DNA of 64,000 bases from an uncultured Candidatus Saccharibacteria bacterium (GTDB lineage Bacteria > Patescibacteriota > Minisyncoccia > Phycocordibacterales > CAYSCM01), in assembly GCA_964429815.1 (NCBI GenBank), contig CAYSCM010000001.1, positions 160,001 to 224,000 of the forward strand, in the 5' to 3' direction. The position numbers and the translations under genes are program-made. Below, piece by piece: positions 29,647 to 47,381 of the stretch. The notes under the pieces were generated by a model. It saw nothing but the letters and a program-made list of their open reading frames with translations. It was not told the DNA's origin and did no database searches. The stretch's first letter is position 1, and each line of letters starts with the position of its first letter.

Positions 29647-30173
29647 ATGAAGAAAACCAGCAAAAACAACAGCATGCCAAAGAAACGCGCCGCCCTATCG
29701 ACCGGGCGCTCATTCGTAAACTTTTAACCGACGTACTGGAACGCCTCCAGATAACCGTTGAGGCGCTCGAGGAGATCGACCACCCGGCCCACCCCATTTT
29801 TTTGGTGAAGACACCCGATTCGGCGGTTCTCATAGGCAACCGGGGAGAGAGCCTCCAAGCACTCAACTATCTCTTGCGAAAAATGGTCGAGCAAGAGGGT
29901 GACGGAGAGGGCATGGAGCAGTTTCTCGTCGACGTCAATCACTACCAAAGCAAAAAAATAGACGAGCTGCGGCAAAAAGCGCTCATGCTCGCGGAGCGCG
30001 CTCGTCTCTTCAAGCACGACGTTGAAATGAGCCCCATGAGCGCCTACGAACGCATGATCGTGCACGCAACATTCGCCGATCATCCCGACGTCGGCACAGA
30101 ATCGCAAGGCGAAGGAAAGTTCCGCCGCGTGGTCATCAAATATAAGGGTTCAGGAAGCGGCGGAGGTACCTAA
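29643..30173 (+). CDS. jag: Jag/KhpB RNA-binding protein (KH plus R3H)
   Basis: R3H motif MSPMSAYERMIVHATFADHPDV. Canonical position after yidC. Confidence 0.75.
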   Translation: MNEENQQKQQHAKETRRPIDRALIRKLLTDVLERLQITVEALEEIDHPAHPIFLVKTPDSAVLIGNRGESLQALNYLLRKMVEQEGDGEGMEQFLVDVNHYQSKKIDELRQKALMLAERARLFKHDVEMSPMSAYERMIVHATFADHPDVGTESQGEGKFRRVVIKYKGSGSGGGT

Positions 30174-31438
30174 CGGGCGCCCGTCGATGTGGCACTGTCG
30201 CTGAGCCTCACGCTCCAGAGTGAGAGATCTTTTTTGTTTTGAAAGAGAAGCTCGTCTTCGTTAGGTGAGAGCGAGAGATACTGCACGTCGAAGAGACGCG
30301 TGCCTTCACTGCTGAAGCGATAGAAGAGGGTTGAAGCACCTGTTTGTGCGTCGATATGCCAAATGTTATCGGAGAAACTAGCTTGCCCCTGGTACCACAG
30401 GTCGGGATAGGTACCATTCGTATTTCCCGTAACTGCAAACGGCACCGCACAGAGTATCTCCGTTGGTTTTTTGACGCTCCAGAGGCACTTGTCGGGGATG
30501 GTGGCGACGGCTGCATCGATGACTTTCCCTGTTCTAACGTTGAGGATATGCATAAGGATGGTAGAACCGATGGTCTCGCTCCACAGAATACGCTTGCCGT
30601 CCGCGCTCGGGAGAGCTGTGAGCCCCGAAATGTCGCCAAGGAGGCGCCCCACGGTGCCCGAGGAGGGATTCACGCTGTAAAGATAGCCCGGAGTGTTTCC
30701 GGAGGGTTTGGAGAGAAGAAGCGGGGTTCCTCCGAGCCAGTAGGGAAGCCACTCGGATATAGGCGAGGAAAAGAGCTTGGTGATTTTCCCGGTAGAAATG
30801 TTGTCGACGATGACCGAAGAACCCTGATTCTCCTTGCGGATGTAGAGAAGCTGCTTTCCTTTGCTATCAGGTGCTACGGCGAGAATATTGTCTTCGAGAT
30901 AGGTGCCGCCGAGCGACCCTCCGCCCCCGTTTGCGTTTATACGGCCGAGGAACGTCTGTATGCGCTCGTCGCTCTCCGAGAGGAGACGCAAAAGCAAGAT
31001 TATCGGGCTGTCGAGCCAGAGCGCCTGGTAGATCTTAGGTATAGTTGTATTGGTAACGCGCTTCGTCTCGCTATTTTCGAAGTTAGCTTCGTAGACGTTG
31101 CCATCTTCGCGTTCAATGTAGCGAATGAACTCGTTGCCATTGGCGAGGAACGAGGCATACCCCGACACCGGCTTTCCGGATACCAGGTGCAGACGCGGTG
31201 ATGTGCTGGCCTGCCCGGAGAGTTCTGCTCCGGTGTCACCTCCTTGTGGAAAGGGCTCTCCCGAACCAGTGCCACCTTGCCCCGTTGGACTTTCAGAAAT
31301 TTGTCCGAATATAGGCTGTTGAGCTTGCGATGAGCTCCTAGAACTCGCGGTTTTCCCTAAGAAATAATAGCTGCCAACCCCAAGTAGCACGAGGCCGAAG
31401 AAAAGTCCGAGAGTGATGTAGAGGGTCTTTCGTCTCAT
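30170..31438 (-). CDS. Membrane-anchored hypothetical protein with beta-propeller-like repeats; first gene of the T4SS-like cluster region
   Basis: N-terminal TM LYITLGLFFGLVLLGVGSYYF. Ser/Gly-rich linker. Repeated TolB/WD-like strands. Confidence 0.45.
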   Translation of the reverse strand: MRRKTLYITLGLFFGLVLLGVGSYYFLGKTASSRSSSQAQQPIFGQISESPTGQGGTGSGEPFPQGGDTGAELSGQASTSPRLHLVSGKPVSGYASFLANGNEFIRYIEREDGNVYEANFENSETKRVTNTTIPKIYQALWLDSPIILLLRLLSESDERIQTFLGRINANGGGGSLGGTYLEDNILAVAPDSKGKQLLYIRKENQGSSVIVDNISTGKITKLFSSPISEWLPYWLGGTPLLLSKPSGNTPGYLYSVNPSSGTVGRLLGDISGLTALPSADGKRILWSETIGSTILMHILNVRTGKVIDAAVATIPDKCLWSVKKPTEILCAVPFAVTGNTNGTYPDLWYQGQASFSDNIWHIDAQTGASTLFYRFSSEGTRLFDVQYLSLSPNEDELLFQNKKDLSLWSVRLSDSATSTGAR

Positions 31439-31439
31439 A

Positions 31440-32393
31440 TCAAAATCCTATAGCGCTGCACCTCGGTGCTTCTCCGAATCCCGGACAATATTGCTGGCAA
31501 TCAGCGAGAGAGGAAAAGGCTACTTTCCCAGTCTCGATTCCCTTCCCCCAGGTGCAGAGTGTTTCCTGCGGGGCATTAAAAAGACTCTGTGGCTCTTGTG
31601 GCGGAGGTGGCAGGTTCGTCGTTTGTGATTGTAAAACGTCAGCCGACACCGCCGTGCATCTGCCCGAACAGGTTCGCTGGCACTCATCCATTGATGCAAC
31701 ATAGTAGCGTCGTCCTTGATATGAACCGTTATCTTCACGAAGTTCGCACGCCGCCTGAGAACTTATGCTAGTTGGAATCCCGTTTATAATCGGAGTCTTG
31801 TTTGGCTGGGTCGTTATTGTCGTCGGGCTCCCCGTCCCGGGCGTTGTGGATGGCCCGCCGAGGAGCGAATTATTTTTTACAATCTGCGGATTGATGGTGA
31901 CGAGGAGTACGTAGGAGAGAAGGATGATAAGAAGGCCGTATATCGCGGATTCAATGTAATCACGCCCACCCTCTTTCCCAAACGGCGTACTGCTCAGCAT
32001 GTACTTGAAACCGCCAAAGGTAATCATAAGAACGGCGAGAAGCGCTGCGATGCCAAGGCCAAAATCAAAAATAGTATTGAGGACACTACTGAGACTCCCG
32101 TTGTTTTTTGTGTAAAGCCCTCCAATATTTTCAAGGGGGACGAAACCTTGAGAGCCGGTTACTTGTGTTCCTAAGGGAGTAGTTTGTAAGGGGGAAGCGT
32201 CACCACATCCACCGGTTCCTTGTACATCAACGCAGGGTGTGCCCGATTGCGCTGGTTGAAGTGCAGAAGAACAATTTTCCGTATAGCCTCGAGAACAGGA
32301 GTCTCCAGATTCTGCCTTAGAAAAGGCAAACGGCAGCATCAAAAGACAGAGAATGGAGATTATTATTTGTGACTTTCTCATATCATTTACCAA
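31440..32393 (-). CDS. Cys-rich secreted protein with a central two-helix hydrophobic hairpin; possible VirB2/TrbC-like pilin
   Basis: Signal peptide. Cys-rich N-domain. Hydrophobic helices FDFGLGIAALLAVLMITFGG and AIYGLLIILLSYVLLVTINP. Cys-rich C-domain. Confidence 0.35.
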   Translation of the reverse strand: MVNDMRKSQIIISILCLLMLPFAFSKAESGDSCSRGYTENCSSALQPAQSGTPCVDVQGTGGCGDASPLQTTPLGTQVTGSQGFVPLENIGGLYTKNNGSLSSVLNTIFDFGLGIAALLAVLMITFGGFKYMLSSTPFGKEGGRDYIESAIYGLLIILLSYVLLVTINPQIVKNNSLLGGPSTTPGTGSPTTITTQPNKTPIINGIPTSISSQAACELREDNGSYQGRRYYVASMDECQRTCSGRCTAVSADVLQSQTTNLPPPPQEPQSLFNAPQETLCTWGKGIETGKVAFSSLADCQQYCPGFGEAPRCSAIGF

Positions 32394-33402
32394 AGTTTAT
32401 TTGAAGGGCTATCGATGTGGCCTGAAAAATTTGCGAAACATTTTGTAGCGAGAGAGCAAGATTTGCTGTGCCCGATGATGGGGCCGTCTGGCGCAGCACT
32501 ACATCGGCCGGATTTTTACTCGAGGGAGTCACGCTCTTGTCATTGAGCGTCCAGGCGTAGGTGAGCGCTCCTCCGCCGCGGGAATCCGTCGAGAAAAAGT
32601 ACGGGAAGGCGGAGACCGTCGCCTCGCTTTTAGTGAGATTGACACTTTCAGGAAGTGCCCGGTCGAAACGAAATCCTAGAAGTGGGTCGTTTTCATAGAG
32701 GATGACGAATGGCTCGTCTCCGTTGAACGAGAGGGAACGAGTTGCTTTGATGGAACCATCCGAACTCGCTACGTCTACCGACACATTGATCCCGCGATAG
32801 ACGCGGGCGCCGGGGATGGTAACGGACTGAGCGCCGCGCCCCGAAGAATCCCCCAGCACCTGGCCATTAAGGTGCCACGTGTAGAAAAGGGCCTCAGGCC
32901 TGATGCGCGCGCCGTTCTCGTCTACGAAAAACGGCATCGCAAAGAGGACCATCGTGGCGTCATAGGGAGCGAGAGCTTTACCGCGGTAAAAGGGCGGGGT
33001 GTAGACATTCGCTTGCCACAGCAGATCAAGGCCTGCCGGGCGAACGATGGCTGTTTTGGTAAGGGTCGAGCCATTGGGGAGTGTTGCGTTAACGCGAAGC
33101 ACATTGATGCTTCCAATACCGCCAACCGTGAAGTGGGCCGTGACGACACCAACCCCTGAGTCAATGATCTTCCCGTTAAGGCTCCACACCAAGGTGGCGC
33201 GGGCAAGGTTTTCTGCGTAACTGGCGACCTGGGCCGATACGGCTTGACCCGCTCCGGGTACCTCAGGCGAGAGGGAGAGCGAAAAATCTCCTGGCACGGT
33301 GGGCAAATTTAGCTGTGCAAAGAGCGTTGTAGGGAGCGAAAGGGCCGCGACGAGGAGTGTCGTCGCGCAGAGGCCGCGCATGATTCGGGGGGAAATAGTC
33401 AT
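32383..33402 (-). CDS. Secreted protein with repeated Ig-like beta-sandwich modules
   Basis: Signal peptide LCATTLLVAALSLPTTLFA. Repeated WxLNG...G motifs. Confidence 0.45.
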   Translation of the reverse strand: MTISPRIMRGLCATTLLVAALSLPTTLFAQLNLPTVPGDFSLSLSPEVPGAGQAVSAQVASYAENLARATLVWSLNGKIIDSGVGVVTAHFTVGGIGSINVLRVNATLPNGSTLTKTAIVRPAGLDLLWQANVYTPPFYRGKALAPYDATMVLFAMPFFVDENGARIRPEALFYTWHLNGQVLGDSSGRGAQSVTIPGARVYRGINVSVDVASSDGSIKATRSLSFNGDEPFVILYENDPLLGFRFDRALPESVNLTKSEATVSAFPYFFSTDSRGGGALTYAWTLNDKSVTPSSKNPADVVLRQTAPSSGTANLALSLQNVSQIFQATSIALQINFGK

Positions 33403-34016
33403 CAGGCTGCCTTCACTTTGGCTTGAGATTTATTATATTCCCTATCCTCCTGGTGAACGAGGCGGATTTCCGACCACACGCACATCGTCCATATAGGTAT
33501 TGCATTTAACCCAGGCGCTAATTTAACCGCGATGAGAATCAAATCTCGGATCGGGCGTTTTAGTGTCAAAAAGTTATGACCAGAAGTAGCAAACCATCCA
33601 ATGAAAATAAAGAAAATCACGATCGACAAAACCGTGTTGATGATGAGTCCAATGATGAGAAAGGTGAGAACAAGTTGGATAAGATCGAAAAACATCGCCA
33701 CTCCCATCATGGCCGCATACTGAAGTCCTCCGATGCGGTGACGTTTTTTTGCGGGTACGGAAACGCGTTGGGCCGTCGCCACTTGAGCGGGCTCCCGTGG
33801 TGAAACCCGCGTATATCCCGATGGCTGCCGTTGCCAAAACGCACGCTCTTGCGGGTCGAGTTCCTTACTCCCCATGCTCACCTTCGGGTTCCCGCCTATG
33901 CGAATGCCTCGCTTTACTCCTTCGGCTCGTAAGGCTTCGTATTCCTGTCGAGTCATGGAGGGATCCGCTCCAGCCGGAGGGGTCCACTTTTTTGATTGCG
34001 GGTCACGCGGAGGCAT
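33402..34016 (-). CDS. Membrane protein, hypothetical (T4SS-like cluster)
   Basis: Basic N-terminus followed by three hydrophobic helices. Confidence 0.45.
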   Translation of the reverse strand: MPPRDPQSKKWTPPAGADPSMTRQEYEALRAEGVKRGIRIGGNPKVSMGSKELDPQERAFWQRQPSGYTRVSPREPAQVATAQRVSVPAKKRHRIGGLQYAAMMGVAMFFDLIQLVLTFLIIGLIINTVLSIVIFFIFIGWFATSGHNFLTLKRPIRDLILIAVKLAPGLNAIPIWTMCVWSEIRLVHQEDREYNKSQAKVKAA

Positions 34017-34018
34017 GA

Positions 34019-35851
34019 CTATTTATTCGCCTCGGCCTCGAGCTCCTGGCGGGCCTTTTTAATAGCGAGAATTTGGCTCGGATCGGAGGTGATGATTTGA
34101 TCTTCGGTATAAGAGGCGATGATTTTGATGGCGACGTGTTTGAGGCCGGCAAAGAATATCCCCTCTCCCACGTCCGATTCCAGGAGCAGGTACTTTTCCT
34201 CGTCGGTGAGGTTAAACGTTTTCTGCACGTTGTCGATGGAGGTTGGCGATTGCTTCAGCAGCAGCTGAATGGAGGAGTTGGTTATCATAGGGAGCCCGTA
34301 GGGAGAGTTCAAGAAATCAGAAACGTCTTGCGTGATGGTGGCAAGACCCAGGAAGTATTTGCGCCCGCGTTTGGCGACCGAAAAGAGGAAACTCGCCGTA
34401 TCCTCGCTCTGCATCATCCAGTGCGCTTCATCGACGATAAAGAGGCGTTTCTTGAGCTCCTTGCGCACTGCGGTCCAGATGAAGTGCGTGACGATGTACA
34501 TGGCGACGGGCTTGAGCTCATCCTCCATGTCGCGCACGGAGAATACGACAAAATTTTTGTTGATATCGACATTGGTCGGGCGATTGATGAAACCTGCCCA
34601 CGTACCCTTGGTGTACTTGGAGAGGCGCTGCACGAGCGACTCGGAGCCTTCCATTCCGGCGAGCACGAGCTCGAAGTCGGAGAGGAGCGGCGGCTCGATG
34701 CTGGTGAAGTCGCTCTCCCCCGTTATGTCCTTGAGCGCATAGGTTTCCGTGATAGCCCGGTCGATGATGGAGTCTTCCTCCGGCGTTAGGCCGCCGAGCA
34801 TGATGCGGAACAGGCCCACGAGATTCACGATGTTGCTTCGAAGCACGTCGCCGGGAGCTTCGTCTTCCCGCGGGGTCGGCAGGTCGAAGGGGTTGATGTG
34901 GTGCTCGGAGGTGAGGGATATGTTGAAGTAGCGCCCACCGACGGCGTCCGCCATGTACTCGTACTCACGCTCAGGGTCGATGACAATGACCTCGGTGCCG
35001 AACATAAGGGAGCGCAAAATTTCGAGCTTTACCGCGTAGGATTTGCCGGCGCCGGATTTTGCGAACGTCACCGAGTTGTAGTTTTCGAGGCTAAAGCGAT
35101 CAAAGAGGATGAGGGAGCTGTTGTGGCGGTTGATGCCGTAGAGAATTCCCTTGTCGGAAGTGAGATCGAAGGAGACAAAGGGAAAGAGCGAGGAGAGCGG
35201 CGAGGAGTTGAGCTTCGTGTGCACGGAGAGCTCATCGGAGGCTATGGGAAGTACGGAGCGGAACCCCTGCTCCTGCTGAAAGAGCGCGGGCTTCACGTAG
35301 ATGAGGCGGCTCTCGAGCATGGTCTTTATCTCGCTCTCCACCTTGTCGAGCTCTTCCTGCGAGTTGCCATAGATAGAAATGTAAAGCCCGACATCGAAGA
35401 GTTTCTCTTGCGCCTGCTGGAGCTGGTCGCGGAGCGATTCAAGGTCACGATAGGCGGTGTCGAGCATTGGATCGCGCACGAGCCCGCGCTCCTCTCGGGT
35501 CGTGATCTGACTTTGCACCTCCGCGACCTTTTTTTGGAATTTCCGAAGCACTGTAGCGGTGTCCGCCGGATGCACGAATATGGATACGTCGAAGACCCGA
35601 TCGAGATTTATGATGGGAGCAAACCAGGAATCCGCGAGGTAGCGTGGGTAGGAAATAACAAATAGCGTGCGCACCAGCTTGTCGCCGAGATTCATCTCCC
35701 GCGGGGTGATCTTGAGCGCTGAAGGGGCGATGATGTCGTGGAACTCAAGCGCTCCCGCTTCATAGATTTCCTGCGGCAAAATGGGAGTGACCGGGACTTC
35801 CCTCCTCTTTTTCCCGCCCAAGCCTCCTGTGAGAAAATCAAGTAGAGCCAT
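34019..35851 (-). CDS. VirB4/TrbE/CagE-family type IV secretion ATPase (C-terminal ATPase portion)
   Basis: Walker A FAKSGAGKSYAVKLEIL. Walker B LFIVDEAHWMM. About 600 aa of VirB4-like sequence. Confidence 0.8.
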   Translation of the reverse strand: MALLDFLTGGLGGKKRREVPVTPILPQEIYEAGALEFHDIIAPSALKITPREMNLGDKLVRTLFVISYPRYLADSWFAPIINLDRVFDVSIFVHPADTATVLRKFQKKVAEVQSQITTREERGLVRDPMLDTAYRDLESLRDQLQQAQEKLFDVGLYISIYGNSQEELDKVESEIKTMLESRLIYVKPALFQQEQGFRSVLPIASDELSVHTKLNSSPLSSLFPFVSFDLTSDKGILYGINRHNSSLILFDRFSLENYNSVTFAKSGAGKSYAVKLEILRSLMFGTEVIVIDPEREYEYMADAVGGRYFNISLTSEHHINPFDLPTPREDEAPGDVLRSNIVNLVGLFRIMLGGLTPEEDSIIDRAITETYALKDITGESDFTSIEPPLLSDFELVLAGMEGSESLVQRLSKYTKGTWAGFINRPTNVDINKNFVVFSVRDMEDELKPVAMYIVTHFIWTAVRKELKKRLFIVDEAHWMMQSEDTASFLFSVAKRGRKYFLGLATITQDVSDFLNSPYGLPMITNSSIQLLLKQSPTSIDNVQKTFNLTDEEKYLLLESDVGEGIFFAGLKHVAIKIIASYTEDQIITSDPSQILAIKKARQELEAEANK

Positions 35852-35853
35852 AG

Positions 35854-36489
35854 CTATAGGTTCGCTGCGATCGGCTTTTCGAGCTCACCGGGGTTGAAGA
35901 GTTTGTAGTAAAGCTCGATGGCTTCCTCGGTGCCTAAGGTCGCGACCCTAACTCCGGTGCGCACGAGCCCTTGCTCGACGACCGCGACGCGTTGCTCAAG
36001 TTGGGTGCGGCTCTCTTCGAACGTCGCGGCGGCCTCCTCCTTCGTTTTTTTGCCGAAGCTCGGGAGCGTTGGGAGCCCGCTTTTTCCCACGGAGAGCACC
36101 GCCGGCGAGTACGGCACAACGATAAAGAAATTTTTCGTCATAATGTTGGCCTGCTCGACGAAGCTTTTTATGAAATCAATGTACTCGCGTGTCTGGATTT
36201 TCATAAGCTCGGTGGTCTGCTCTTTGTACTTTCCCTCAAGGAGCGCCACGTAGGGGCGGATATCGAGCTGGCGTGATTCGATGAATATCTGGATGGAAAA
36301 GTCGAGCGAGTTGAGGAAGTTTTGGAACTGCGCGAGGATGGCGGTCTGTTCGTCGGCGGATTTAAGCGCAAAATTGAGCGAGGAGGCGATGAGAATGGAG
36401 CGCAACCCTCCGTCCTTGAGGACCACGATGCCATCACGCACCTCCTTGATGGGCACGAACTCCTGGCTTGCTTTTCCGGCGACGGCCAT
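35854..36489 (-). CDS. VirB4 N-terminal domain encoded as a separate ORF
   Basis: GIVVLKDGGLRSILIASSLNFALKSADEQTAILAQFQNFLNSLDFSIQIFIESRQL matches the conserved VirB4 N-terminus. Its stop lies 2 nt before the ATG of the ATPase ORF, in a different frame. Confidence 0.6.
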   Translation of the reverse strand: MAVAGKASQEFVPIKEVRDGIVVLKDGGLRSILIASSLNFALKSADEQTAILAQFQNFLNSLDFSIQIFIESRQLDIRPYVALLEGKYKEQTTELMKIQTREYIDFIKSFVEQANIMTKNFFIVVPYSPAVLSVGKSGLPTLPSFGKKTKEEAAATFEESRTQLEQRVAVVEQGLVRTGVRVATLGTEEAIELYYKLFNPGELEKPIAANL

Positions 36490-36909: not shown

Positions 36910-36982
36910 AGAAGTAGTATACCCCGCGCAAAGCCGCATCGCGGCTTTGCGCTGTAGATTCGGCGCGTACTACTATGAGTGC

Positions 36983-37682: not shown

Positions 37683-40679
37683 CTATCTCAATCCTACCGT
37701 CACCGAATAGGTCTTTCCATCATCTAGCTGTGCAGACACTTTATACCAGTACCCAGGAGTAACCCCCTTCGTGTTCCAGTTGTAAATATATTGCCCTGGT
37801 GCCGAGTCCCAACGAAACTCACCTCCAGAGGTGCTGGGGTCGGAATATGTTGACTCATCGATGGCGGCAGTTAAAGTCGAGCCTTTAATCGGGGTAAGCC
37901 AAACTGGATTTTTACCTGCTTGTGCTAGCATTCCATTCACTTTCTTAAGTTGGAATTTTACCGGTACGGTACTTCCTCCTTTAAAAACGCTTAGAGACTG
38001 AGTGGGATTAATCGACGGGTCGTTTATTGGCTGGAGAAAACCGCTCCACCGATAGGTGATAGTCAGTGTGCCGACAATAAAAGAGGTGAATTGGTAGGTG
38101 CTCGAAGTTAAGGTGCCTATGGTGCAAATAATTGGATAAATTCCAATACCAGTTGTTGCTGTTGCCGTGGTTGAACATTGTGGAACCCCGGCAATGTCGT
38201 TGTGTGCCGCATCATCGCCATTTACAAATCCGCTGAAACTTACCGTAAAGGAAGGAATAGGAGAACCGAGCACGATGGTTTTATTATCCACGGTGACCGT
38301 AAGGGGATTGAAAACTACTAGTCCGTCCAACTTCGGAGTGAGAGAATAAACTGTAGTTCCGTCTCCGTTTACATCGAGTGAGAGAGGACTCGCGCCAGCG
38401 ATCGTCCCGTCAGAGAAATTCATAGTCGCGATGGTAGTTGTTGCCGAAGGAATGTCTGCGAACGTTGTTGTTGCAAGAATAGAATTCCCTTCAACCTCTT
38501 CTATTTTGAGAGTAAATCCTCCAGCCGATTCTCCTTCCAACCGCAGAGTCGGGAGGTCTTCTGCAGGGACACTCACGTATTTAATGTCACCAAACTCAGT
38601 GTACGTTGCTCCTGGGATGGTATTTTCAAGAATCCTTGTACTCGTTGCTAGTTTCAGGTGGTTCCCATTTTTATCATTGATCTCAATGGAAAGTGGTGAG
38701 TGCAGGAAGTATCTTAGACGCTTTTGAATTAAATGAGAGGGAACTTCTTTGGAGATGTATTGCGGTAGCTGTGCTGCGCTATTTATAATGATACCGTCAA
38801 TCAAATCGTTGAGTTGCCCAACTTCAAGGATGTCTGCGTGGTCTCTGCCCAAAGGAATAGTGAGTCGGTTGTCCTTATTGAACTGGTTCAAATCAACCCA
38901 ATATCTGCTCACGTTAGGCGAGCTCGTACTCATCGTGAGCGCACTTGGAGTGACTACAGTTCCGTCCCCATCGACAACGATGCCAAGGTCTTCGTCGAGA
39001 CATGGGTTGTACCTGAGACAATGGTAAAAGCCACCATTTCGATAAGAAATATTACCCACTGTTTCGTTGCCCCACCCCGCAATTTGATACAACTGAATTC
39101 CCGACGGTGGAACCCACGTATCGAGATGGCTATGCAGGACGTCAGCATCATTCAAGAGCAATGCATTACCGACGAGAGGATAGGTCACATTGGAAAATGA
39201 AGGCCCAGTTCGCCCCTCGATCCCCGAGACAAATGAAGCGAGCTCATTGAAAGTATTTATATTCGAGCCATAGGCGTCAGTAAATATTTTTGTCGTGCTG
39301 CCGCTCCGAAATGATATGGGTGGAGTAATCACATCACTCCCAGGCCCGTCAAAGTACGCTCGGGACGGGAGGAGGTTGTACACCATTGGAGAATTTTGTG
39401 CGAATGCGCGCGCCGTCGCCTCGCTTAGAACGAACCCCAAGGCATGTGATTGATTGGTTCCATCCAGGAGAGCCCCTACGGCGATAGGGGTCCCCGTTTG
39501 AGGAACGGCGACAAAAATAATCTTGTCGATAAGGGAGCTAGCTTCCGGACCGAGTATTTCCATCAATCTTTTGGCCAAAAGGCCCCCGTTGGAATGGGCG
39601 ATGATAGTGACTTTTCCGGTATTCGAGGTTCCGGCCAAGCGTCGAAGTTCCTGGAGTATGTACGGGGTCGTAGTGGAGCGGAGGTTTCCCGAATAGTAGA
39701 TATGATCGCCGACCTGATGCCCATACTTTAGAATATCATCGAGCGACAATCGCCAGTCATAAGCAGCCGGCAGCCAATCCTTGATCGTGCCGGCGGTTTT
39801 GAGTTGATCCATTTCACCGATAAAACTTTTGTAAATATTCGCTCCGGTCGGCAATTCGTCGATAACGTCGCCGATTTTTGTATATATATCGCCACGCACG
39901 CTTGAACCATCCGGATTCATGAAAAGATCCCGCGCATCGGCATTGCTGAAGGGCTCCCACAGTCTATCTTCCCCTCCGCCGTCGGCCGGGCGATATAAGC
40001 GACTTGCCTCTATGCCAGGCAAAAAGAGCACGTTTGAGTTGCTTTGCGTATTGATATTACTCGTTCCGAGTTCGTCATACATCAGAAGATCGCCCAGGTC
40101 TGGGCGTGCACCGAATTCTGCCGACAAAGCGACGGTGTCGATGAAATCTCCCGCCGCATGAGCCACGGCGCCTACCCACGAGCAGTGTCCAACATCAACA
40201 TCATCTTGCTGAAAACATGTTTCCTTGGCACCTACATGATCTCGCCATGCAAAAAGATATTGATGCCACTGTCCATCGAGAGGAGTAAATCTATTTCTGA
40301 ATTCACAATTGGTTGAAGCCGAAACATTCGGCGCACCGGTACAAAGTAAAACGATGCTGCCGTACCCAAATTGAGCCCATCCGCTCTGGGCTTTTGCGTA
40401 GAATGTGATGTTTCCTTCGGTTAACGGAGTCCCTGTTTTGTAAATTCTAGGAATTTGGAAAAGCACGGTACTTTGAAGACATTGACCGGAGATACACCCG
40501 CTGCTCACTTGGGTAAACGGGCCTACACTTCCACCGTACACGTTCCAGCCAAAGTATCCGAAGGGTAAATCGAAGGAGTCGGAGACGGGAGCGGCCGCAA
40601 ACGCGTGACTGCCGGAGAGAAGAAGAAAAAATAGTCCGAAAACGAAAACGAAGAGTCGCCAGTAGCGGACTTTTTTCAT
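37683..40679 (-). CDS. Large secreted protein (998 aa) with a lipase-like alpha/beta-hydrolase domain
   Basis: Signal peptide. AHSNGG nucleophile elbow (GKVTIIAHSNGGLLAKRLMEILG; compare Bacillus LipA AHSMGG). Long beta-rich C-terminal region. Confidence 0.55.
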   Translation of the reverse strand: MKKVRYWRLFVFVFGLFFLLLSGSHAFAAAPVSDSFDLPFGYFGWNVYGGSVGPFTQVSSGCISGQCLQSTVLFQIPRIYKTGTPLTEGNITFYAKAQSGWAQFGYGSIVLLCTGAPNVSASTNCEFRNRFTPLDGQWHQYLFAWRDHVGAKETCFQQDDVDVGHCSWVGAVAHAAGDFIDTVALSAEFGARPDLGDLLMYDELGTSNINTQSNSNVLFLPGIEASRLYRPADGGGEDRLWEPFSNADARDLFMNPDGSSVRGDIYTKIGDVIDELPTGANIYKSFIGEMDQLKTAGTIKDWLPAAYDWRLSLDDILKYGHQVGDHIYYSGNLRSTTTPYILQELRRLAGTSNTGKVTIIAHSNGGLLAKRLMEILGPEASSLIDKIIFVAVPQTGTPIAVGALLDGTNQSHALGFVLSEATARAFAQNSPMVYNLLPSRAYFDGPGSDVITPPISFRSGSTTKIFTDAYGSNINTFNELASFVSGIEGRTGPSFSNVTYPLVGNALLLNDADVLHSHLDTWVPPSGIQLYQIAGWGNETVGNISYRNGGFYHCLRYNPCLDEDLGIVVDGDGTVVTPSALTMSTSSPNVSRYWVDLNQFNKDNRLTIPLGRDHADILEVGQLNDLIDGIIINSAAQLPQYISKEVPSHLIQKRLRYFLHSPLSIEINDKNGNHLKLATSTRILENTIPGATYTEFGDIKYVSVPAEDLPTLRLEGESAGGFTLKIEEVEGNSILATTTFADIPSATTTIATMNFSDGTIAGASPLSLDVNGDGTTVYSLTPKLDGLVVFNPLTVTVDNKTIVLGSPIPSFTVSFSGFVNGDDAAHNDIAGVPQCSTTATATTGIGIYPIICTIGTLTSSTYQFTSFIVGTLTITYRWSGFLQPINDPSINPTQSLSVFKGGSTVPVKFQLKKVNGMLAQAGKNPVWLTPIKGSTLTAAIDESTYSDPSTSGGEFRWDSAPGQYIYNWNTKGVTPGYWYKVSAQLDDGKTYSVTVGLR

Positions 40680-40829: not shown

Positions 40830-41732
40830 TTAGGAGAGGGGTTCGCGGTAGGGGTCGACTTTTGGCTTTTCAGGACCTGCGGAGGCGGAGGGGCCTATCG
40901 GTGGCACGATTTTTTTCTCCTGCATCGGGGAGCGCACCTGGCTTTGGAGCTTCGCCGCGGTGAAGTCTTGTCCAAAAGTGCGAAGTGGGGGAAGTGAGCT
41001 TTCCTGCACCGGCGCTCCCACCACCGGCCCTCTATTAATAGAGGGGGTCGGGGCAGGTTGCGGTGCGACCAGAGATGTGGCTTTTGTCGGAGCTGAGGAG
41101 ACCGAGGCCGGACGGACGGGAATTTCTGGCGTCTTTTGAAGAGCAGCTATCGCGTCGGCGAGAGCTTCTCTGCCGCCGGGCGCCGTCGAGGGGCGCGCAG
41201 GAATTGAACTCGAAAGTGGAGGTTTTGTCTGGGGAGGGGGCGGGGCTTGCCTTGGTACTTGCTCCCCAGGTGGCCTTTGTGGTTGCGGGGTTTGCGTCGC
41301 GGGTTGCGGTCGTGGTGTTTGTTGGGGTGCGGCTCCTCCTTCCCCACCGCGGGCATGTGCGAAGGGGGCGGATTGAAGGGAGGGCGTTATATCTCCTTTG
41401 AGAGGAGTTTGTTTTGAGGGTTCCTCGGTAATTTTTTTAAGAGAGTCGCGAATGGGTTTAAAAATCTGTTCATTAACATCCAGAACAACCGAGCCGACTT
41501 TTTCTACAGGAAAACCACGTTTTCGAAGTTCATCTGGTAGTACCTCAGCCTTAATTTCTCCAAGAATGACTAGCGTGATTACATCACTAAGAAGACCAAC
41601 CTTATCAATGAGTAGCGCCTGTTTCCTACCAATGGCTTGAATAGCTTCTGTTACTTTCTCAGAAAAAAGAACGTCTTGGAGTTCTGAAGGAAGTTGGAAT
41701 ATCCGTCTTATTTTTTGCTTAGTATCGATCAT
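40830..41732 (-). CDS. Pro/Ala-rich low-complexity protein, hypothetical
   Basis: 300 aa with long PQ/PA-rich stretches. Structured N-terminal 100 aa. Confidence 0.4.
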   Translation of the reverse strand: MIDTKQKIRRIFQLPSELQDVLFSEKVTEAIQAIGRKQALLIDKVGLLSDVITLVILGEIKAEVLPDELRKRGFPVEKVGSVVLDVNEQIFKPIRDSLKKITEEPSKQTPLKGDITPSLQSAPFAHARGGEGGAAPQQTPRPQPATQTPQPQRPPGEQVPRQAPPPPQTKPPLSSSIPARPSTAPGGREALADAIAALQKTPEIPVRPASVSSAPTKATSLVAPQPAPTPSINRGPVVGAPVQESSLPPLRTFGQDFTAAKLQSQVRSPMQEKKIVPPIGPSASAGPEKPKVDPYREPLS

Positions 41733-41737: not shown

Positions 41738-44182
41738 TTATGGAATCCTACCGAGAGTGTGGAAGAGACGTCCCCCTTGGCTATTTCCAAAGTTTGCTAG
41801 CGCAAGTATGGCAGGATCGGTCGCACCCGCGTTTCGGCGATTAATTACTTCTTGCATAATGGCATTACCAGCACCCACATCAGCGCCTGCTTTCATCATT
41901 TCTCGAAGCGCTTCTTGTTTTAGGTGAGGAACAAGCTCGGGAAGGAGGGTGGCTCTCGTACTTGAATCGTCATAGAGACCCAGCGCCATTTTGGCCATTG
42001 CCTTGGGATCAACCCGCAACTTCTTAATATCCGTACCAAAGGTTCCAATCGCTCCATGGCCCAGAGACTCTTTAAGGAAATCCCCTCGCTGTTTACCAAG
42101 TGCCGCTTTAATACTGGCGGCGATCTTGTCGCTTTTCATAACCTCGTCGTATTTATCCTGGGACAGTGTCCTCGCCAAGGTGTCGATTTGTCCAGCGAGG
42201 GCCTTTTCAGTAATTATGAGCTCGAGCTCTTTATTGTTTACCTTGTCGAATTTCTTTATTAACTCCTCGTCTTCCGCTGAAAGATGGCCAGGAATTGCGG
42301 CCGCTGCCGCACGTGCAGCATTTTCCAGAAGTTCTTTGTGACGAGCGGTGGTTACTTTATCGCGCATTTCGTCGGTGTACTTATCATTTTTCACATCAGA
42401 TATGGATAGATACTGTGAAGAGGTAAGATTCTTCGCTACCCAGTCTTTTGTCAAAGTCTTCACCCCCAAAGAGGCCAGCTGCGTATCACTCATCGCACCA
42501 AGAGCTCGAAGACCTTTTGCTTCAGCTTCTTGTTTTTGTGCGTCTGTGTATTTTGTTGGATTCTCACTGATCTCAATCGCGCGCTCAATGTCGTCGCGGA
42601 AGTCTGCCTCCCTGCGTACCGCAGCACGCCCGAGCTTTTCCTTCTTAACCTCTTCCTTGATCGCGACTCCTGATTTAGTCGTTCCAAACTTAGCACCTGC
42701 AATTAGGCCGGTGGTGTACTTGCGGGCAAGGGAACCCAACTGGGTCCCACCAATAAGGCGTGACTGAGCGAGCCTTTGATCAAGGTTCGCAATGGGCCTG
42801 CCAATTGCATTGCGGGCCAGGAAGCCACCGCCGTATTTGCCGATAGATTTTACAGTAAAGTTGATTGCATTCAGGCCTTCATTGCCAATTTTTTTTGCAA
42901 CCGATAGGGTTAGAAGTGATAATCCAATAACAACTGCAAAGTTTATTAGCAATTGGATTGATCCGGGGGCAGTAGCCGCCGAGCTTCCGTCCGCTAGGTC
43001 CGCAAACGTTCCATTACCAATAGCGGTTTGAAATGCTGGATTTTTCATTACACCCAACACGAACCACAATAATCCAAAGTAGGCCGGTAGCATTATCGCA
43101 TTTGACCAAAGCGCCCCCCACCACTGGTTCCATAGTCCACCGAAGAAGGGTAAAAAACGAGCAAGCACAGCTAACGGAGAGGTGACCATTAGCACAAGGA
43201 ATACAATAATTCGCCCAATTATATGTAAAGCAGCGATGAGGAATGAATAGGCAAGGATTATAAAGAGAATGCAGCCAAGCATACTCAAAAGAAAACTATT
43301 GCCATTACTGAGCAGGGCGGCCGCCCTACTGCCGGTGAAGTTTTTCAAATCATATAAAGACCCCATCCGTAAAACTTGCATAAACTGTCCCGATAGCCCG
43401 ACATCCGAGTTTAGAAATTGATCAGTCTGCCCCTTCGCAAGTAACTGAGTGTAGAACTGTGTTGAAATATAATTACTTGCATCGATTACGACCCTTGTTA
43501 GAGCGAAGCTAAAATTTATCAGTAACGCCGCTATTACCACGTTCGCCAAAAGTTTTTTTGCCCCGTATTGTTGTACCCGCAATATGGTGGAAATGCCGAT
43601 AATCAAAAGGCTGAAAATAAGAACAATATTCGCCACATCACGAATGGTCATCCAAAATCCGTCGAGAGTACCGAAGGTCTTTATTGTTGTTCCAAAGTCA
43701 AGAACACCCCACACCACCACCTTGTTCAAGAAGAACCCGGCAACTCCCAGAATCCAAGCAAACAAGGTTAGGAATGCGTACCCAATACATCCGATGGAAA
43801 TATCAGGAATAAAGCCGACGTACGGGTCACAGTTGGGTGGCTTACTTCGTATATCGTCACCCTTTTTCTTTGAGGCATCGGCTGCTTGTGTATCGGTACT
43901 TTCCCTTACGTCTGCATCACTCACAGCGTCACCCTTTACGGTAATTAAGGAACCATCGGCCGCACGATAAAAATACGGATCAGTTATGTTTTTCCCTGGG
44001 CCAAGCAATGTATAGGTCTTTCCATTCCAAGTGCAAGCTGGGGGGTAGTTGTTTGCGCCAGTGGCTGTGCAAAGAGGGTCCGCGGCGAGAGCAACTTCTG
44101 TATGTAGTGAAAAGCCATACCCAACCACAAAAGACTTTAAGATGAAAATTGTGAGTAGTAATGTTGAAACAGCTTTTCTCAT
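41738..44182 (-). CDS. VirB6/TrbL-like polytopic T4SS membrane protein with extracellular N-domain and long coiled-coil C-terminal extension
   Basis: Signal peptide. Cys-containing ecto-domain. Six to eight TM helices between residues about 140 and 440. Then about 370 charged and coiled-coil residues. Confidence 0.5.
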   Translation of the reverse strand: MRKAVSTLLLTIFILKSFVVGYGFSLHTEVALAADPLCTATGANNYPPACTWNGKTYTLLGPGKNITDPYFYRAADGSLITVKGDAVSDADVRESTDTQAADASKKKGDDIRSKPPNCDPYVGFIPDISIGCIGYAFLTLFAWILGVAGFFLNKVVVWGVLDFGTTIKTFGTLDGFWMTIRDVANIVLIFSLLIIGISTILRVQQYGAKKLLANVVIAALLINFSFALTRVVIDASNYISTQFYTQLLAKGQTDQFLNSDVGLSGQFMQVLRMGSLYDLKNFTGSRAAALLSNGNSFLLSMLGCILFIILAYSFLIAALHIIGRIIVFLVLMVTSPLAVLARFLPFFGGLWNQWWGALWSNAIMLPAYFGLLWFVLGVMKNPAFQTAIGNGTFADLADGSSAATAPGSIQLLINFAVVIGLSLLTLSVAKKIGNEGLNAINFTVKSIGKYGGGFLARNAIGRPIANLDQRLAQSRLIGGTQLGSLARKYTTGLIAGAKFGTTKSGVAIKEEVKKEKLGRAAVRREADFRDDIERAIEISENPTKYTDAQKQEAEAKGLRALGAMSDTQLASLGVKTLTKDWVAKNLTSSQYLSISDVKNDKYTDEMRDKVTTARHKELLENAARAAAAAIPGHLSAEDEELIKKFDKVNNKELELIITEKALAGQIDTLARTLSQDKYDEVMKSDKIAASIKAALGKQRGDFLKESLGHGAIGTFGTDIKKLRVDPKAMAKMALGLYDDSSTRATLLPELVPHLKQEALREMMKAGADVGAGNAIMQEVINRRNAGATDPAILALANFGNSQGGRLFHTLGRIP

Positions 44183-45840
44183 ATCGTTTGTTGTTGCGGG
44201 AAGGCGTAGCAGGCATCGAGCCTCTGCAAGGCGTCCTGAATGAGCGGATTTATTTCGGCGAGCATGTCGGACTGCTCTTGCTGCGCTGTTGCGATATCGG
44301 CATCGGAGGGGAGCGCGCCGGAGGATGTGAGTGCAGTGAACTGGGCCGAAGCGGCATCGAGCTCGTCGGGAGAAGTTGCATTCTGTATCTGGGATTCAAG
44401 TTGATACGCCTGGTTGATAGCACCCTGTGTTTTGGCGATTTGAGCCGAGAGAGCCACCTTCTTGGTCGTGACGAGGCTCGCCTGCGTCGTCGAGGCGGCG
44501 AGAATGCTTCGCTGCGCCGTCGCTAGGTCGGTGGAGCTGAGGGAAGAGCTGGCAATTTTGTTCCGGTAACAGTCAATGAGGCTCCCGAAATCGCTGTCGG
44601 CGATGAGCACTTGGTTTAGCGTCGCCTGCTTGACGCTTATGTACTGCTGGGCTTTAGCGATCGAGACATCGACGAGCGAGAGACCCGCACTTTGACGCCC
44701 CGAAATTTCTGCTGATTGCGCGTTGGCGACGTAGACGTCAAGTGCGGTACCGCCGCCAAACTGGCCGTTTTGCGTCGAGAGACCCTTGACGCCGCCGAGC
44801 GCGAGAAGGCCTTGCTTGATGAGCTGTCCGACGAGCGCGGAGATGATGGAGTTTATGTCATTGGCGAGCTCGAGCTGGTCTATATCGGTGCCTAGGACTT
44901 TTGAGAGCTGATCTTGTATCGCCGCTCCCGGGGTGACGATGGTGCAATTTGCTTTCGGGTCCGTTTTATAAGGATCTTGTCCAGGATAGTAGGTCGTGAA
45001 GGTGCCGCCGGTGCCGCTTGTTCCGTCGCTGTAGGTGGTTATAGGTGATTGGCTGCTGCACTGTTTGAACGAGAAGAAGCCGCGGCCGAACTCAAGAAGC
45101 TTCGTGTTGGTGTACTGCGCGCTCGCGATACGCACGGAGAGCTCGCTCTGTGCCATGAGGTAGGAGCCATAGGGATTGTTTTGCGGATTGGTTGTCATCG
45201 CAAACCACGCGGGCCAACCGCCGGCAGCAAAATTCGTGAACGCACTGTTGACGTTTCCGACGACGCTTGAGAGTGTGCAGCGCGCTTTGTTTTGGTACGG
45301 TTGGAAATTAAGCGCGAGCGCGACGCGCACCTGGAGCTGAAAGGGGGAACACAGGAATGAGAGTTCGGAGCCGTAAATAAATTCTCCTATCACCTGGTCG
45401 GCGACGTTGGTGAGGAATCCTTGAAGGTCGGTGACGAAGGCGGGATTCCCCTGAAAGCCGTTGTTTATCCAATTGACGATGCTTCTGGTGAGCTGCGCAA
45501 GGAGCGTCTTGGCGATGAGGATGATGATGGGCTTAATAACACAGTCATGAATGGTCGCGCTTTCGGTCGCGCCCTGGATGCCACCGCTCGCGATATGGAG
45601 ATACTTGTCTACGGCTGGGACATCAGCAGCTTGAAGTCCTATAGAACTGACCCCCGTTGCCTTGCCCTGAATAAGGGAGCTTAGGCAGAAAGCCGTATCG
45701 GGGCCGGCGGGAGTCTGAGCACTCGCCCTCTGGGGGAAGAAAGAAATAGCGGCAGCCCATGGCGCCAGAAGCACGACGAGGAGGAGCCCGGCGATTTGCC
45801 TTTGCATTGAGCCACGGATTGTAGAAATAAGCCCCCTCAT
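44179..45840 (-). CDS. Secreted hypothetical protein (553 aa) with coiled-coil C-terminus
   Basis: Signal peptide LLLVVLLAPWAAAISFF. Gln/Ala-rich C-terminal coiled coil. Confidence 0.45.
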   Translation of the reverse strand: MRGLISTIRGSMQRQIAGLLLVVLLAPWAAAISFFPQRASAQTPAGPDTAFCLSSLIQGKATGVSSIGLQAADVPAVDKYLHIASGGIQGATESATIHDCVIKPIIILIAKTLLAQLTRSIVNWINNGFQGNPAFVTDLQGFLTNVADQVIGEFIYGSELSFLCSPFQLQVRVALALNFQPYQNKARCTLSSVVGNVNSAFTNFAAGGWPAWFAMTTNPQNNPYGSYLMAQSELSVRIASAQYTNTKLLEFGRGFFSFKQCSSQSPITTYSDGTSGTGGTFTTYYPGQDPYKTDPKANCTIVTPGAAIQDQLSKVLGTDIDQLELANDINSIISALVGQLIKQGLLALGGVKGLSTQNGQFGGGTALDVYVANAQSAEISGRQSAGLSLVDVSIAKAQQYISVKQATLNQVLIADSDFGSLIDCYRNKIASSSLSSTDLATAQRSILAASTTQASLVTTKKVALSAQIAKTQGAINQAYQLESQIQNATSPDELDAASAQFTALTSSGALPSDADIATAQQEQSDMLAEINPLIQDALQRLDACYAFPQQQTI

Positions 45841-46805
45841 GAAGAAAGCGTAAGCTTGAGGTTATTCACGAGCATAAAGCTTCCTAGGGTGCGGAAGGAC
45901 TGGTTGAGCGCGGCTTCTCGCGCCTCATAGCCGCTCATGGCGACGAAGGCGACGAGAGGGTCGGTCGCGATGGTCTCGAGGTCGGCGAGCGTTGCCTTCA
46001 TGCCCGAGAGAGCGTTGAGGAGTCCCACATGTGCCGAAAGTGCGTCGCGCGGAACGTTCATCGACACGAGCGCGCGGATACTTTCCCCATAGAGCGCGAC
46101 GTCGTGCTTGTAGGTCATCATCCCGTTTGGATCTTGACCGCTGATGGCATTCTGGAGCGTGAGAAGCTCGTACTCTTTGATGGAAAGGACCGGTGCGAGC
46201 GCGGCGCTGAGGGCACGGTTGTATGCGGCAAGCGTCGACGATGAGGTGCCGGTGACGGAAACGTCGCCGGCTGCGTACACCGTTGGTTTGGTCGCGACGT
46301 TGCCGCTTGCGGCTACGGCATTGACGACCGCCTGCTCATCCTCGGGGGTGAGCGTCTGGCCGCCCTGCTTTTTGCTCAAATAATTTTTGAACAGATTGAT
46401 GGCAAGCGCGTCGGTGTTGCTGAGGCCATTGCCGGGGGCGGTACGAGCGGTAAGGTCGAGCGTCGATCCTGGAGACGTGACAGACGGACTTTTTCCCTCC
46501 CCCGGTGTGAGAGGGTCGCGGCCCTGCGCGACTTCCTGTCCGTCGGAGACCCCGTCGCCGTCGGTGTCGGGATTGTGCGGATCGGTGCCGCGGAGTTGTT
46601 CTTCCCAGTCGGGAAGGCCGTCCCCGTCACTGTCCTTACTTGCCGACGCTATAAGAGCGCTACTTATAGCATCTTCCGAGCTCGCAAGTGAGGGGGAGGA
46701 TGGGGTTTTTGGTTGTAGGAGCGTGAAAAAGGCGACTAAGGCGACGAAAAGAGCCACCACAATGAAAACAAGTACCAGCCCTCTGCTTGGTAGCCACTTG
46801 TACAC
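45837..46805 (-). CDS. Membrane-anchored protein with thrombospondin-type-3-like Ca-binding repeats
   Basis: N-terminal TM. DSDGDGLPDWEE and DTDGDGVSDGQE aspartate-rich repeats. Confidence 0.45.
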   Translation of the reverse strand: MYKWLPSRGLVLVFIVVALFVALVAFFTLLQPKTPSSPSLASSEDAISSALIASASKDSDGDGLPDWEEQLRGTDPHNPDTDGDGVSDGQEVAQGRDPLTPGEGKSPSVTSPGSTLDLTARTAPGNGLSNTDALAINLFKNYLSKKQGGQTLTPEDEQAVVNAVAASGNVATKPTVYAAGDVSVTGTSSSTLAAYNRALSAALAPVLSIKEYELLTLQNAISGQDPNGMMTYKHDVALYGESIRALVSMNVPRDALSAHVGLLNALSGMKATLADLETIATDPLVAFVAMSGYEAREAALNQSFRTLGSFMLVNNLKLTLSS

Positions 46806-46877
46806 ACCTTAAGTATAAGCGCCGACCCTGTAATCCCTCGCTATTTTGCTGTGAATACCGGCGCACGTTCCACAGGA

Positions 46878-47381
46878 ATGAGCTATAGTTGGCTTATCAT
46901 GCGGAAAATCTCCCGTCTTGGAATCGTGACGCTCCTCCTCGGGGCATTTTTGCTTACGTTTTCGCCACTTTCCGGCGTTTTTGCTAAAACAGGCATGAGT
47001 ACAAACAAGGCATCGACGTTCGGCTTTATAGGGCTTGGAGCGTTAGGGCTTGGCATAGGAGCGTCTTTGTTTGGGAGCGGAGCGGGAACGGTAGCGAACG
47101 CACCAGCCGCCATCACCGCCTTCGGTGGGCTTATAACTAAAATAGTCCCTTGCACGAACGGCGGCTTCTGGATGCTTGTTGCCCAACCTCCCCCGAAACA
47201 ACCGACCATCCAAGCTCTGATCTGGACCCCCGCTACGCGGACTTATTTGTGGGGCCCTCCCCGCAAGGTGGGGCAATGGGTACTCGGCCGCTACGATATC
47301 CCCTACGCGTGCACCCAAGGACCACACATCCCAGCGCTCTATGGCTTTCGCATGACTATGGTCGGAACAAGCGCTATCTAA
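46878..47381 (+). CDS. Small secreted/membrane protein with Gly-rich hydrophobic segment (possible pilin-like)
   Basis: Signal peptide LGIVTLLLGAFLLTFSPLSGVFA, then FGFIGLGALGLGIGASLFGSGAG. Two Cys in the C-domain. Confidence 0.35.
   Translation: MSYSWLIMRKISRLGIVTLLLGAFLLTFSPLSGVFAKTGMSTNKASTFGFIGLGALGLGIGASLFGSGAGTVANAPAAITAFGGLITKIVPCTNGGFWMLVAQPPPKQPTIQALIWTPATRTYLWGPPRKVGQWVLGRYDIPYACTQGPHIPALYGFRMTMVGTSAI

Follow-up and report, generated by a model that had tools for sequence, protein, structure and literature searches.

In the 2025 survey of Patescibacteria by Quinonero-Coronel et al., the VirB4 ATPases of type IV secretion systems (T4SSs) form a monophyletic clade related to MPF_FATA and are accompanied by TrsD, PrgI/VirB3, VirB6, and VirB2-like pilins (PMC12102498). 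The clusters are usually chromosomal and, in Paceibacteria, lie near dnaA, dnaN, and ksgA; relaxases are almost never present, type IV coupling protein (T4CP) homologues are rarely nearby, and the authors proposed that these systems take up DNA or other macromolecules from host cells. Using transposon sequencing (Tn-seq), Wang et al. found in 2023 that the T4SS cluster of Southlakia epibionticum, including the pilins, is essential for epibiotic growth, and they pointed out that it has no recognizable relaxase or coupling protein (PMC10633639). A 2025 review of T4SSs refers to the Patescibacteria systems as "notable newcomers" and speculates that the pilus is a conduit for uptake (PMC12857230), and a 2026 preprint describes, for a cultivated member of the phylum, tubules that penetrate the host and may be T4SS structures, along with uptake of host RNA (bioRxiv 10.64898/2026.06.21.733656). 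Here, we describe a locus of this type in a 64,000-nt stretch of DNA (positions 160,001 to 224,000 of contig CAYSCM010000001.1; hereafter, the window). We consider it highly probable that this locus is a chromosomal "Patescibacteria-clade" T4SS of Paceibacteria, which is inherited vertically and serves contact-dependent macromolecule traffic, not conjugation. As such, it is a further example of an already published system and not a discovery; the novelty suggested by an original prediction for this DNA was overestimated because the system had been described in papers from 2023 to 2025.

Compared with the Patescibacteria-clade systems of the survey (PMC12102498), the locus has the same VirB4, an adjacent TrsD-like open reading frame (ORF), PrgI/VirB3, a putative VirB6, and a VirB2-like pilin; it has the same dnaA/dnaN/ksgA context and is likewise relaxase-free, without a nearby T4CP, and of MPF_FATA ancestry. 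Nothing essential differs from the systems as presented there, and a lipase insertion is extra here. The three-immunoglobulin (three-Ig), propeller, TSP3, and 553-aa proteins and the pilin extensions are not discussed in the parts of the survey considered here, where unannotated genes are drawn in gray. The cluster SEML1_0006-0019 of S. epibionticum ML1 is likewise origin-proximal with Gram-positive-like subunits and VirB2-like pilins (PMC10633639). Southlakia belongs to a different class (Saccharimonadia), and this likeness is drawn from descriptions and not from a sequence alignment. Moreover, Southlakia has six short divergent pilins, whereas the window encodes a single, long pilin whose C-terminal domain is variable, and the peptidase and lysozyme genes beside virB4 in Southlakia have no counterpart in the window operon.

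Outside the candidate phyla radiation (CPR), the closest VirB4 proteins are those of the CD1110 family of Firmicutes/Actinobacteria, with 28-35% identity and the same VirB6-PrgI-x-VirB4 order, and this colinearity upholds the description of the locus in the original prediction as a minimized Gram-positive-type T4SS. Among these, Clostridium botulinum pCDC3875 (CTn2/CD1110 type) has a VirB4 of the same family (~32% identity) in a monoderm-type system without VirB7/9/10, and its order of VirD4, x, VirB6, PrgI, x, VirB4, x, SLT hydrolase is colinear with the core in the window. In contrast to the locus described here, pCDC3875 is mobile, has VirD4, a MOBP relaxase, and a large SLT transglycosylase but no pilin, and encodes VirB4 as one 797-aa protein and a short VirB6 (260 aa). 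The Bordetella pertussis Ptl, Brucella VirB, and Helicobacter pylori ComB systems function in protein export or DNA uptake and are not essential for growth. These three systems likewise have a VirB2 pilin and no coupling protein or relaxase, but they have the diderm VirB7-10 architecture and belong to a different VirB4 clade (PMC12102498).

A T4SS operon without conjugation genes

The T4SS operon consists of 13 minus-strand genes in a tight array (30170-46805), in which neighboring ORFs overlap by 1-11 nt or are separated by 1-6 nt, except for two larger gaps of 150 nt (40680-40829) and 342 nt (36940-37281). To compare this operon with related loci, we searched for VirB4 in one genome per GTDB species, which gave at least 579 genomes with a close relative, and used the best 80 of these VirB4-bearing genomes for tblastn with all window proteins. 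The VirB4 proteins of the best 80 are 78-85% identical to that of the window, and they come from Kaiser-, Taylor-, Nomura-, Campbell-, Adler-, and Wolfebacteria, other Paceibacteria/Patescibacteria metagenome-assembled genomes (MAGs), or MAGs without a phylum label. The source organism is a member of the Paceibacteria (CPR/Patescibacteria, ultra-small), in agreement with the CPR-like organism supposed originally.

The 610-aa VirB4 matches NCBIfam NF045971 ("VirB4-like conjugal transfer ATPase, CD1110 family") with 374 bits against a cut-off of 325. This match spans only model positions 184-733; Pfam matches are to P-loop_TraG (78 bits), AAA_10, and DUF87, and the Walker A (AKSGAGKS, residues 263-270) and Walker B (LFIVDE, residues 470-475) motifs are intact. 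The TrsD-like ORF located 2 nt upstream of virB4 aligns to positions 2-118 of the CD1110 VirB4 model (NCBIfam; E = 2e-5) and to positions 104-233 of the Mbov_0397 VirB4 model (E = 1e-8), and this domain is an ORF of its own (~216 aa) in 79 of the 80 loci. Thus, the VirB4 N-terminal domain is truly encoded by a separate gene, and the complementary coverage of NF045971 (positions 2-118 and 184-733) bears out the prediction that N-domain and ATPase are two ORFs. The trs region of pGO1, a conjugative staphylococcal plasmid with a relaxase and a T4CP, likewise has a separate small homologue of the VirB4 N-terminus; the match of the ORF described here to the TrsD family NF041427 (E = 6e-7) is below the cut-off (29.5 bits versus 200).

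The PrgI/VirB3-like protein scores 44.7 bits with PF12666 (threshold, 27), as expected from its original label, and is found in 77 of the 80 loci with a median identity of 54%. The 814-aa protein labeled VirB6/TrbL-like is recognizable as an "extended" VirB6 only via its orthologues: 7 of 37 syntenic orthologues match TrbL (PF04610), as do several database relatives (P0006 with 35.2 bits against a gathering threshold of 25.9). Its predicted topology, with a signal peptide, a Cys-containing ectodomain of ~100 aa, six to seven transmembrane (TM) segments (residues 122-433), and a hydrophilic coiled-coil-like tail of ~380 aa, fits this assignment, and the gene is syntenic in 61 of the 80 loci. 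A PDB profile search with the protein gave only coiled-coil noise.

To search for conjugation genes, we ran Pfam on all window ORFs of 150 aa or longer, inspected the gaps, and extended the analysis by 10 kb past each window end via contigs carrying the edge genes (~84 kb in total). The Pfam scans identified no relaxase, T4CP, or VirB11 in the 64-kb window or the 10-kb flanks and no SLT-type VirB1 in the window; this agrees with the original prediction, in which VirD4/TraG, a relaxase, VirB11, and a VirB1-type transglycosylase were reported as missing from the 64 kb. The original prediction had also considered a relaxase or coupling protein close to the window; neither is present in the 10-kb flanks, where all genes are housekeeping or unannotated. 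Apart from VirB4, PilB (T2SSE) is the sole secretion ATPase of the window. Within the operon, no SLT, CHAP, or NlpC domains were detected using Pfam, and no att-like or direct repeats flank the cluster.

The locus is ancient and vertically inherited

The gene order around and within the operon is the same in dozens of species, i.e., uvrD, ksgA, (small plus-strand ORF), TSP3, 553-aa, VirB6, (Pro-rich), PrgI, TrsD, VirB4, (small TM), three-Ig, pilin, propeller, jag, yidC, dnaA, and dnaN. The comparison with CPR T4SS-like loci for which the original prediction had called thus gave the same synteny. In an all-against-all comparison over 49 loci/species, mean pairwise identity was 0.80 for VirB4 (minimum, 0.74), 0.64 for TrsD, 0.59 for DnaA, 0.44 for DnaN, 0.31 for the three-Ig protein, and 0.29 for the propeller protein. 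The motor is highly constrained, and the surface is fast-evolving. The identities of VirB4 and DnaA are correlated (Spearman, 0.75), as are those of DnaN and DnaA (0.80). Because VirB4 shows higher conservation than DnaA and its divergence parallels that of DnaA, the locus is inherited vertically and is not an integrative conjugative element (ICE). Based on the fixed synteny, the tracking of DnaA by VirB4, the lack of att-like repeats, and the native GC content (outside the insertion described below, the cluster matches the genome and the window), we conclude that the T4SS locus is an ancient chromosomal feature.

We note that, in two of the loci (L076 and L056), an M23/LysM gene is located directly upstream of PrgI and that the TSP3/553-aa/VirB6 module was undetected by tblastn in the upstream flank, which covers ~7.5 kb in L076 but no more than ~1.4 kb in L056. 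The upstream half may therefore be much diverged, or located elsewhere, in some lineages.

Table 1. Genes of the T4SS operon and other features of the window
Feature	Coordinates	Strand	Basis or location
TSP3-repeat protein, 322 aa, membrane-anchored, first operon gene	45837..46805	-	Pfam TSP3_bac 49.9 bits; TM residues 2-34
553-aa protein, large unannotated family	44179..45840	-	N-terminal anchor/signal; no Pfam match
814-aa "extended" VirB6/TrbL-like polytopic membrane protein	41738..44182	-	Orthologue TrbL matches and topology
300-aa Pro-rich protein	40830..41732	-	Sequence composition
998-aa LCAT-like lipase/acyltransferase with Sec signal	37683..40679	-	LCAT, MBG_2, PxKF matches
132-aa membrane protein, ~4 TM	37282..37680	-	Hydropathy; same insertion as lipase
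147-aa PrgI/VirB3-like membrane protein	36496..36939	-	Pfam PrgI
211-aa TrsD-like protein (VirB4 N-terminal domain as own ORF)	35854..36489	-	NCBIfam
610-aa VirB4 ATPase, MPF_FATA/CD1110 type	34019..35851	-	NF045971, Pfam, Walker motifs
204-aa protein, basic N-terminal half and double-TM hairpin (residues 100-150)	33402..34016	-	Hydropathy
339-aa three-Ig surface protein	32383..33402	-	AlphaFold2 and Foldseek
317-aa VirB2-like T4SS pilin	31440..32393	-	T4SS_pilin PF18895
422-aa membrane-anchored protein, probable TolB/PD40-like beta-propeller, last operon gene	30170..31438	-	Weak profile signals
176-aa small hydrophobic/secreted protein between operon and ksgA	46851..47381	+	13/80 loci; no Pfam match
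dnaA	26903-28288		Window
dnaN	25565-26665		Window
ksgA	47393-48172		Window
PilB (T2SSE)	17529-19259		Window
M23/LysM peptidoglycan peptidase	53508-54425		6.7 kb upstream of operon
ComM	54984-56558		Window
Tyrosine recombinase with XerC/D domain pair	62221-63132		15 kb from cluster, amid housekeeping genes

All ORFs that the original prediction named are present on the minus strand where it had placed them. The end that it gave for the cluster, 47381, has to be revised: this coordinate belongs to the plus-strand 176-aa ORF, and the minus-strand operon stops at 46805. The 176-aa ORF keeps its position and orientation in 13 of the 80 loci, and its membership in the T4SS is uncertain. A promoter and terminator scan yielded signals no better than those in shuffled sequence.

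A VirB2-like pilin with a variable C-terminal extension

The 317-aa pilin narrowly passes the threshold of T4SS_pilin (PF18895; 28.5 bits versus 26.6). Among 49 syntenic orthologues, 44 match T4SS_pilin and 7 match TrbC. The protein consists of a signal peptide, a Cys-rich N-terminal stretch, a two-TM core (residues 100-173), and a Cys-rich C-terminal extension of ~145 aa; with 13 Cys residues and the orthologue matches, the original label of a Cys-rich pilin-like protein is well founded. What the Paceibacteria VirB2-like pilins have in common is limited to a signal peptide and the two-TM core, of which the core alone can be aligned. Across the related loci, the C-terminal extensions vary from 6 to 310 aa and are unalignable. 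Some orthologues match peptidoglycan hydrolase domains (CHAP in two species and NlpC/P60 in one), which are likely located in the C-terminal extension. In a two-TM VirB2, both ends are outside the cell after cleavage of the signal peptide, and in solved conjugative pili, both pilin termini are on the outer surface.

Surface and accessory proteins encoded with the core

The 339-aa protein, originally described as a secreted Ig-repeat protein, is confirmed as such by an AlphaFold2 model with a mean predicted local distance difference test score (pLDDT) of 91.3, in which an N-terminal anchor/signal helix precedes three tandem Ig/FN3-like beta-sandwiches. Using Foldseek, the model matches phage Hoc (3shs; E = 2.7e-9), NCAM Ig1-3, the S-layer protein SbsB, and the adhesin SiiE, and the protein is found in 73 of the 80 loci. 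We considered whether this protein could be a VirB8; the confident model has three Ig-like sandwiches and not an NTF2 fold, which rules this out.

The 422-aa protein is probably a TolB/PD40-like beta-propeller, as suggested by a match of its family profile to a TolB propeller region (E = 9.5e-4) and weak PD40 matches in 3 of 37 orthologues. It has a TM segment (residues 4-28) and is found in 61 of the 80 loci. Of its original label, the membrane part is supported by this segment, and the propeller part by weak TolB/PD40 signals only. The TSP3-repeat membrane protein was labeled correctly based on its calcium-binding TSP3_bac repeats and N-terminal TM segment, and it occupies the same slot in 37 of the 80 loci.

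The 553-aa protein has an N-terminal hydrophobic anchor/signal, consistent with its description as secreted, followed by a conserved Cys-containing domain of unassigned fold and a long helical bundle at the C-terminus; it has no family match. Pfam gave zero matches over 66 members of the family, Foldseek with the AlphaFold2 model gave nothing at E below 0.1, and a PDB profile search returned noise. The model is confident only at residues 366-546, and the conserved N-terminal domain is modeled poorly. At E ≤ 1e-10, at least 5,444 cluster representatives (clustered at 50% identity) belong to the family, and the gene is syntenic in 53 of the 80 loci. The idea that the helical bundle is VirB5-like found no support.

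The 300-aa protein, which is Pro-rich as originally stated (15% Pro), combines a conserved N-terminal domain of ~100 aa with a Pro-rich tail; its N-terminal third was detected in 22 of the 80 loci, and at most others a small gene occupies the slot. The 204-aa double-TM protein was detected in 11 of the 80 loci. In 34 of 42 measured loci without a match, a gap of ~0.4-1.0 kb separates the VirB4 and Ig genes, and in about a dozen loci these two genes are almost adjacent.

A lineage-specific insertion carries a gene for a predicted secreted LCAT-like lipase

The 998-aa protein matches LCAT (PF02450; 47.2 bits), MBG_2 (57.5 bits), and PxKF (97.9 bits). It is of the alpha/beta-hydrolase type with an AHSNG nucleophile elbow and has a Sec-type signal peptide, in agreement with its original label as a lipase-like secreted protein; the adjacent 132-aa protein was rightly called a small membrane protein (~4 TM segments). 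Neither protein has a counterpart in any of the 80 related loci, and the VirB6-to-PrgI interval is 4.8 kb here compared with 0.36-2.4 kb at the related loci. The GC content of the inserted stretch is 0.48, compared with 0.535 for the rest of the cluster and 0.531 for the window. Four metagenomic relatives of the lipase have no T4SS neighbors. The lipase and the 132-aa gene are a lineage-specific insertion of ~3.9 kb outside the conserved system. The original prediction emphasized many large secreted proteins in the cluster; these genes are present, but because the lipase is a lineage-specific insertion, not all of them are part of the T4SS. The lipase as a conserved T4SS effector is ruled out by its absence from the 80 loci, the size of the slot, and its T4SS-free relatives.

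At one edge of this insertion, we observed a 38-bp perfect palindrome (40736-40773) that has a second copy between two convergent genes (9449-9486); one copy reads ATACTCAAATTATAAGCTA followed by TAGCTTATAATTTGAGTAT. The copies differ at one position, and both remain perfect because this single change is mirrored on both arms (A>C/T>G). The flanks of the two sites are unrelated, zero chance matches are expected, and the palindrome is absent from 89 fetched loci. An operator, a hairpin, and a tiny palindromic element are possible interpretations. Also within the lineage-specific insert, the 342-nt gap between the PrgI and 132-aa genes contains an ORF of ~95 aa on the opposite strand (36990-37273, plus strand) with three internal repeats of the form RG..(I/V)Y.T.HHP (MKFYTPNYGN...FEMRGNAIYITAHHPGF...YENRGGKVYATEHHPEG...YEIRGDRVHTTVEHSQHD).

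Proposed function and alternative explanations

Based on these data, we propose that the core (VirB4, the TrsD-like protein, PrgI/VirB3, and the extended VirB6) may have descended from monoderm conjugation machinery of the MPF_FATA class, would have lost the relaxase and the coupling protein, and may have been turned into a conserved housekeeping-like organelle beside the replication origin. In this model, TrsD would supply the VirB4 N-domain in trans, and VirB4/TrsD docked on PrgI/VirB3 and the extended VirB6 would constitute a membrane channel. The VirB2-like protein would be extracted and polymerized into a pilus or tube with its hypervariable C-terminal ectodomain facing outward, and the three-Ig, TolB-like propeller, TSP3, and 553-aa proteins might build the extracellular part or aim it at a host cell. 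The analysis establishes which genes are present, their composition and synteny, how strongly they are conserved, and that conjugation genes are missing nearby. The assembly of a pilus, what the accessory proteins do, and which cargo moves in which direction are inferred; uptake of host material is the most likely flow and is preferred over effector export. The original prediction had proposed DNA uptake or host-cell interaction instead of conjugation: the case against conjugation is strengthened by a locus that is free of relaxase and T4CP, linked to dnaA, and codiverging with DnaA, and a role in uptake or host interaction is predicted.

Several observations weigh against this model. The 814-aa protein taken as VirB6 has zero Pfam or NCBIfam matches and, on its own, fails every hidden Markov model threshold, and hhalign of this protein against one Firmicutes CD1112 VirB6 gave nothing. 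The operon has no VirB8-like or VirB1-like component. The predicted pilus would have to be formed by a 317-aa pilin with a C-terminal domain of ~145 aa. A T4CP could be encoded elsewhere on the 501,704-bp contig, and according to the survey, VirD4 homologues are far from virB4 in many Patescibacteria (PMC12102498). Finally, the direction of transport is a prediction from sequence, and Wang et al. favor protein export or an alternative role for the Southlakia system (PMC10633639).

This last view corresponds to a T4SS that exports proteins or effectors and delivers toxins or enzymes into or onto the host, which we regard as rather unlikely for the locus described here. The LCAT-like lipase gene within the operon would be a candidate cargo, but the lipase has its own Sec-type signal, is missing from the 80 loci, and has relatives that are not T4SS-linked. 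The CHAP or NlpC/P60 domains on some pilin orthologues are also compatible with export, but no conserved candidate effector was found in the locus. Similarly, there is no coupling protein for substrate recruitment, although the survey lists T4SSs, i.e., Ptl and Brucella VirB, that secrete effectors without a T4CP (PMC12102498).

In a more far-reaching reading, which we consider unlikely, a conserved Paceibacteria outer module (three-Ig, propeller, TSP3, and 553-aa proteins) would replace the missing VirB1, VirB8, and adhesin parts of the monoderm T4SS. The hypervariable C-terminal domain of the single pilin (Cys-rich and PAN-like here, CHAP or NlpC/P60 in some species) would be displayed on the pilus surface as the determinant of host specificity or wall breaching, and lineage-specific cargo genes would be slotted into the operon. 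If so, the Sec-secreted LCAT-like lipase would serve to gain lipids from the host where the two cells touch.

It appears quite improbable that the locus is a competence system of the ComB or Ced kind, which would bring in free DNA from the environment for transformation or nucleotide salvage. The lack of a relaxase and a T4CP would suit it, as H. pylori ComB likewise lacks both, but the hypervariable surface parts point to the recognition of cells and not of naked DNA. ComM and recombination genes (ruvABC and uvrD) are in the window; however, these neighbors are origin-proximal housekeeping genes that are there in many bacteria. DNA import is one of the options proposed in the survey (PMC12102498), but the competence of Southlakia, which requires ComEC and type IV pili, is dispensable, while its T4SS is essential (PMC12857230).

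An ordinary or decaying ICE with a relaxase and coupling protein just outside the window, as the CD1110 VirB4 family, the gene order shared with Firmicutes conjugative elements, and a tyrosine recombinase at 62221-63132 might suggest, is extremely improbable and is dismissed based on the identical housekeeping flanks on both sides in dozens of species, a VirB4 that codiverges with DnaA and is more conserved, the lack of these genes in the window and 10 kb past either end, the lack of flanking direct repeats, the native GC content, and the XerC/D domain pair of the recombinase, which lies 15 kb away among housekeeping genes.

The Patescibacteria T4SS is probably central to the epibiotic life of a very large share of bacterial diversity, and the window, although it does not extend the range of known systems, provides a clear example from Paceibacteria. 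It points to a pilin with a variable ectodomain, to an ATPase core under stronger constraint than DnaA with fast-evolving surface parts and to a fixed unannotated accessory set that travels with the core and includes a family of >5,000 diverged members without a Pfam model. The accessory set, the conservation of VirB4 above that of DnaA, the variable pilin ectodomains with occasional CHAP or NlpC/P60 domains, and the lipase insertion go slightly beyond the published accounts considered here and are leads and not claims.

Other features of the window

Between uvrD and the M23/LysM peptidase gene, the window encodes an 896-aa protein (50444-53134, minus strand) without a Pfam match, which has a highly charged N-terminal half, Gly/Ala-rich hydrophobic stretches in the middle, and a Pro-rich C-terminus. 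It was not found in the 80 loci, and in several related species, uvrD and the M23/LysM peptidase gene are adjacent. Further away (1802-5216, minus strand), a YcaO cyclodehydratase gene lies beside a gene for a 629-aa AMMECR1-domain protein with a weak terpene-cyclase/TED-like C-terminus, and a small ORF of 41 aa is called next to these genes in a Logan contig. The YcaO and AMMECR1 genes may represent a locus of the ribosomally synthesized and posttranslationally modified peptide (RiPP) type in a reduced genome.

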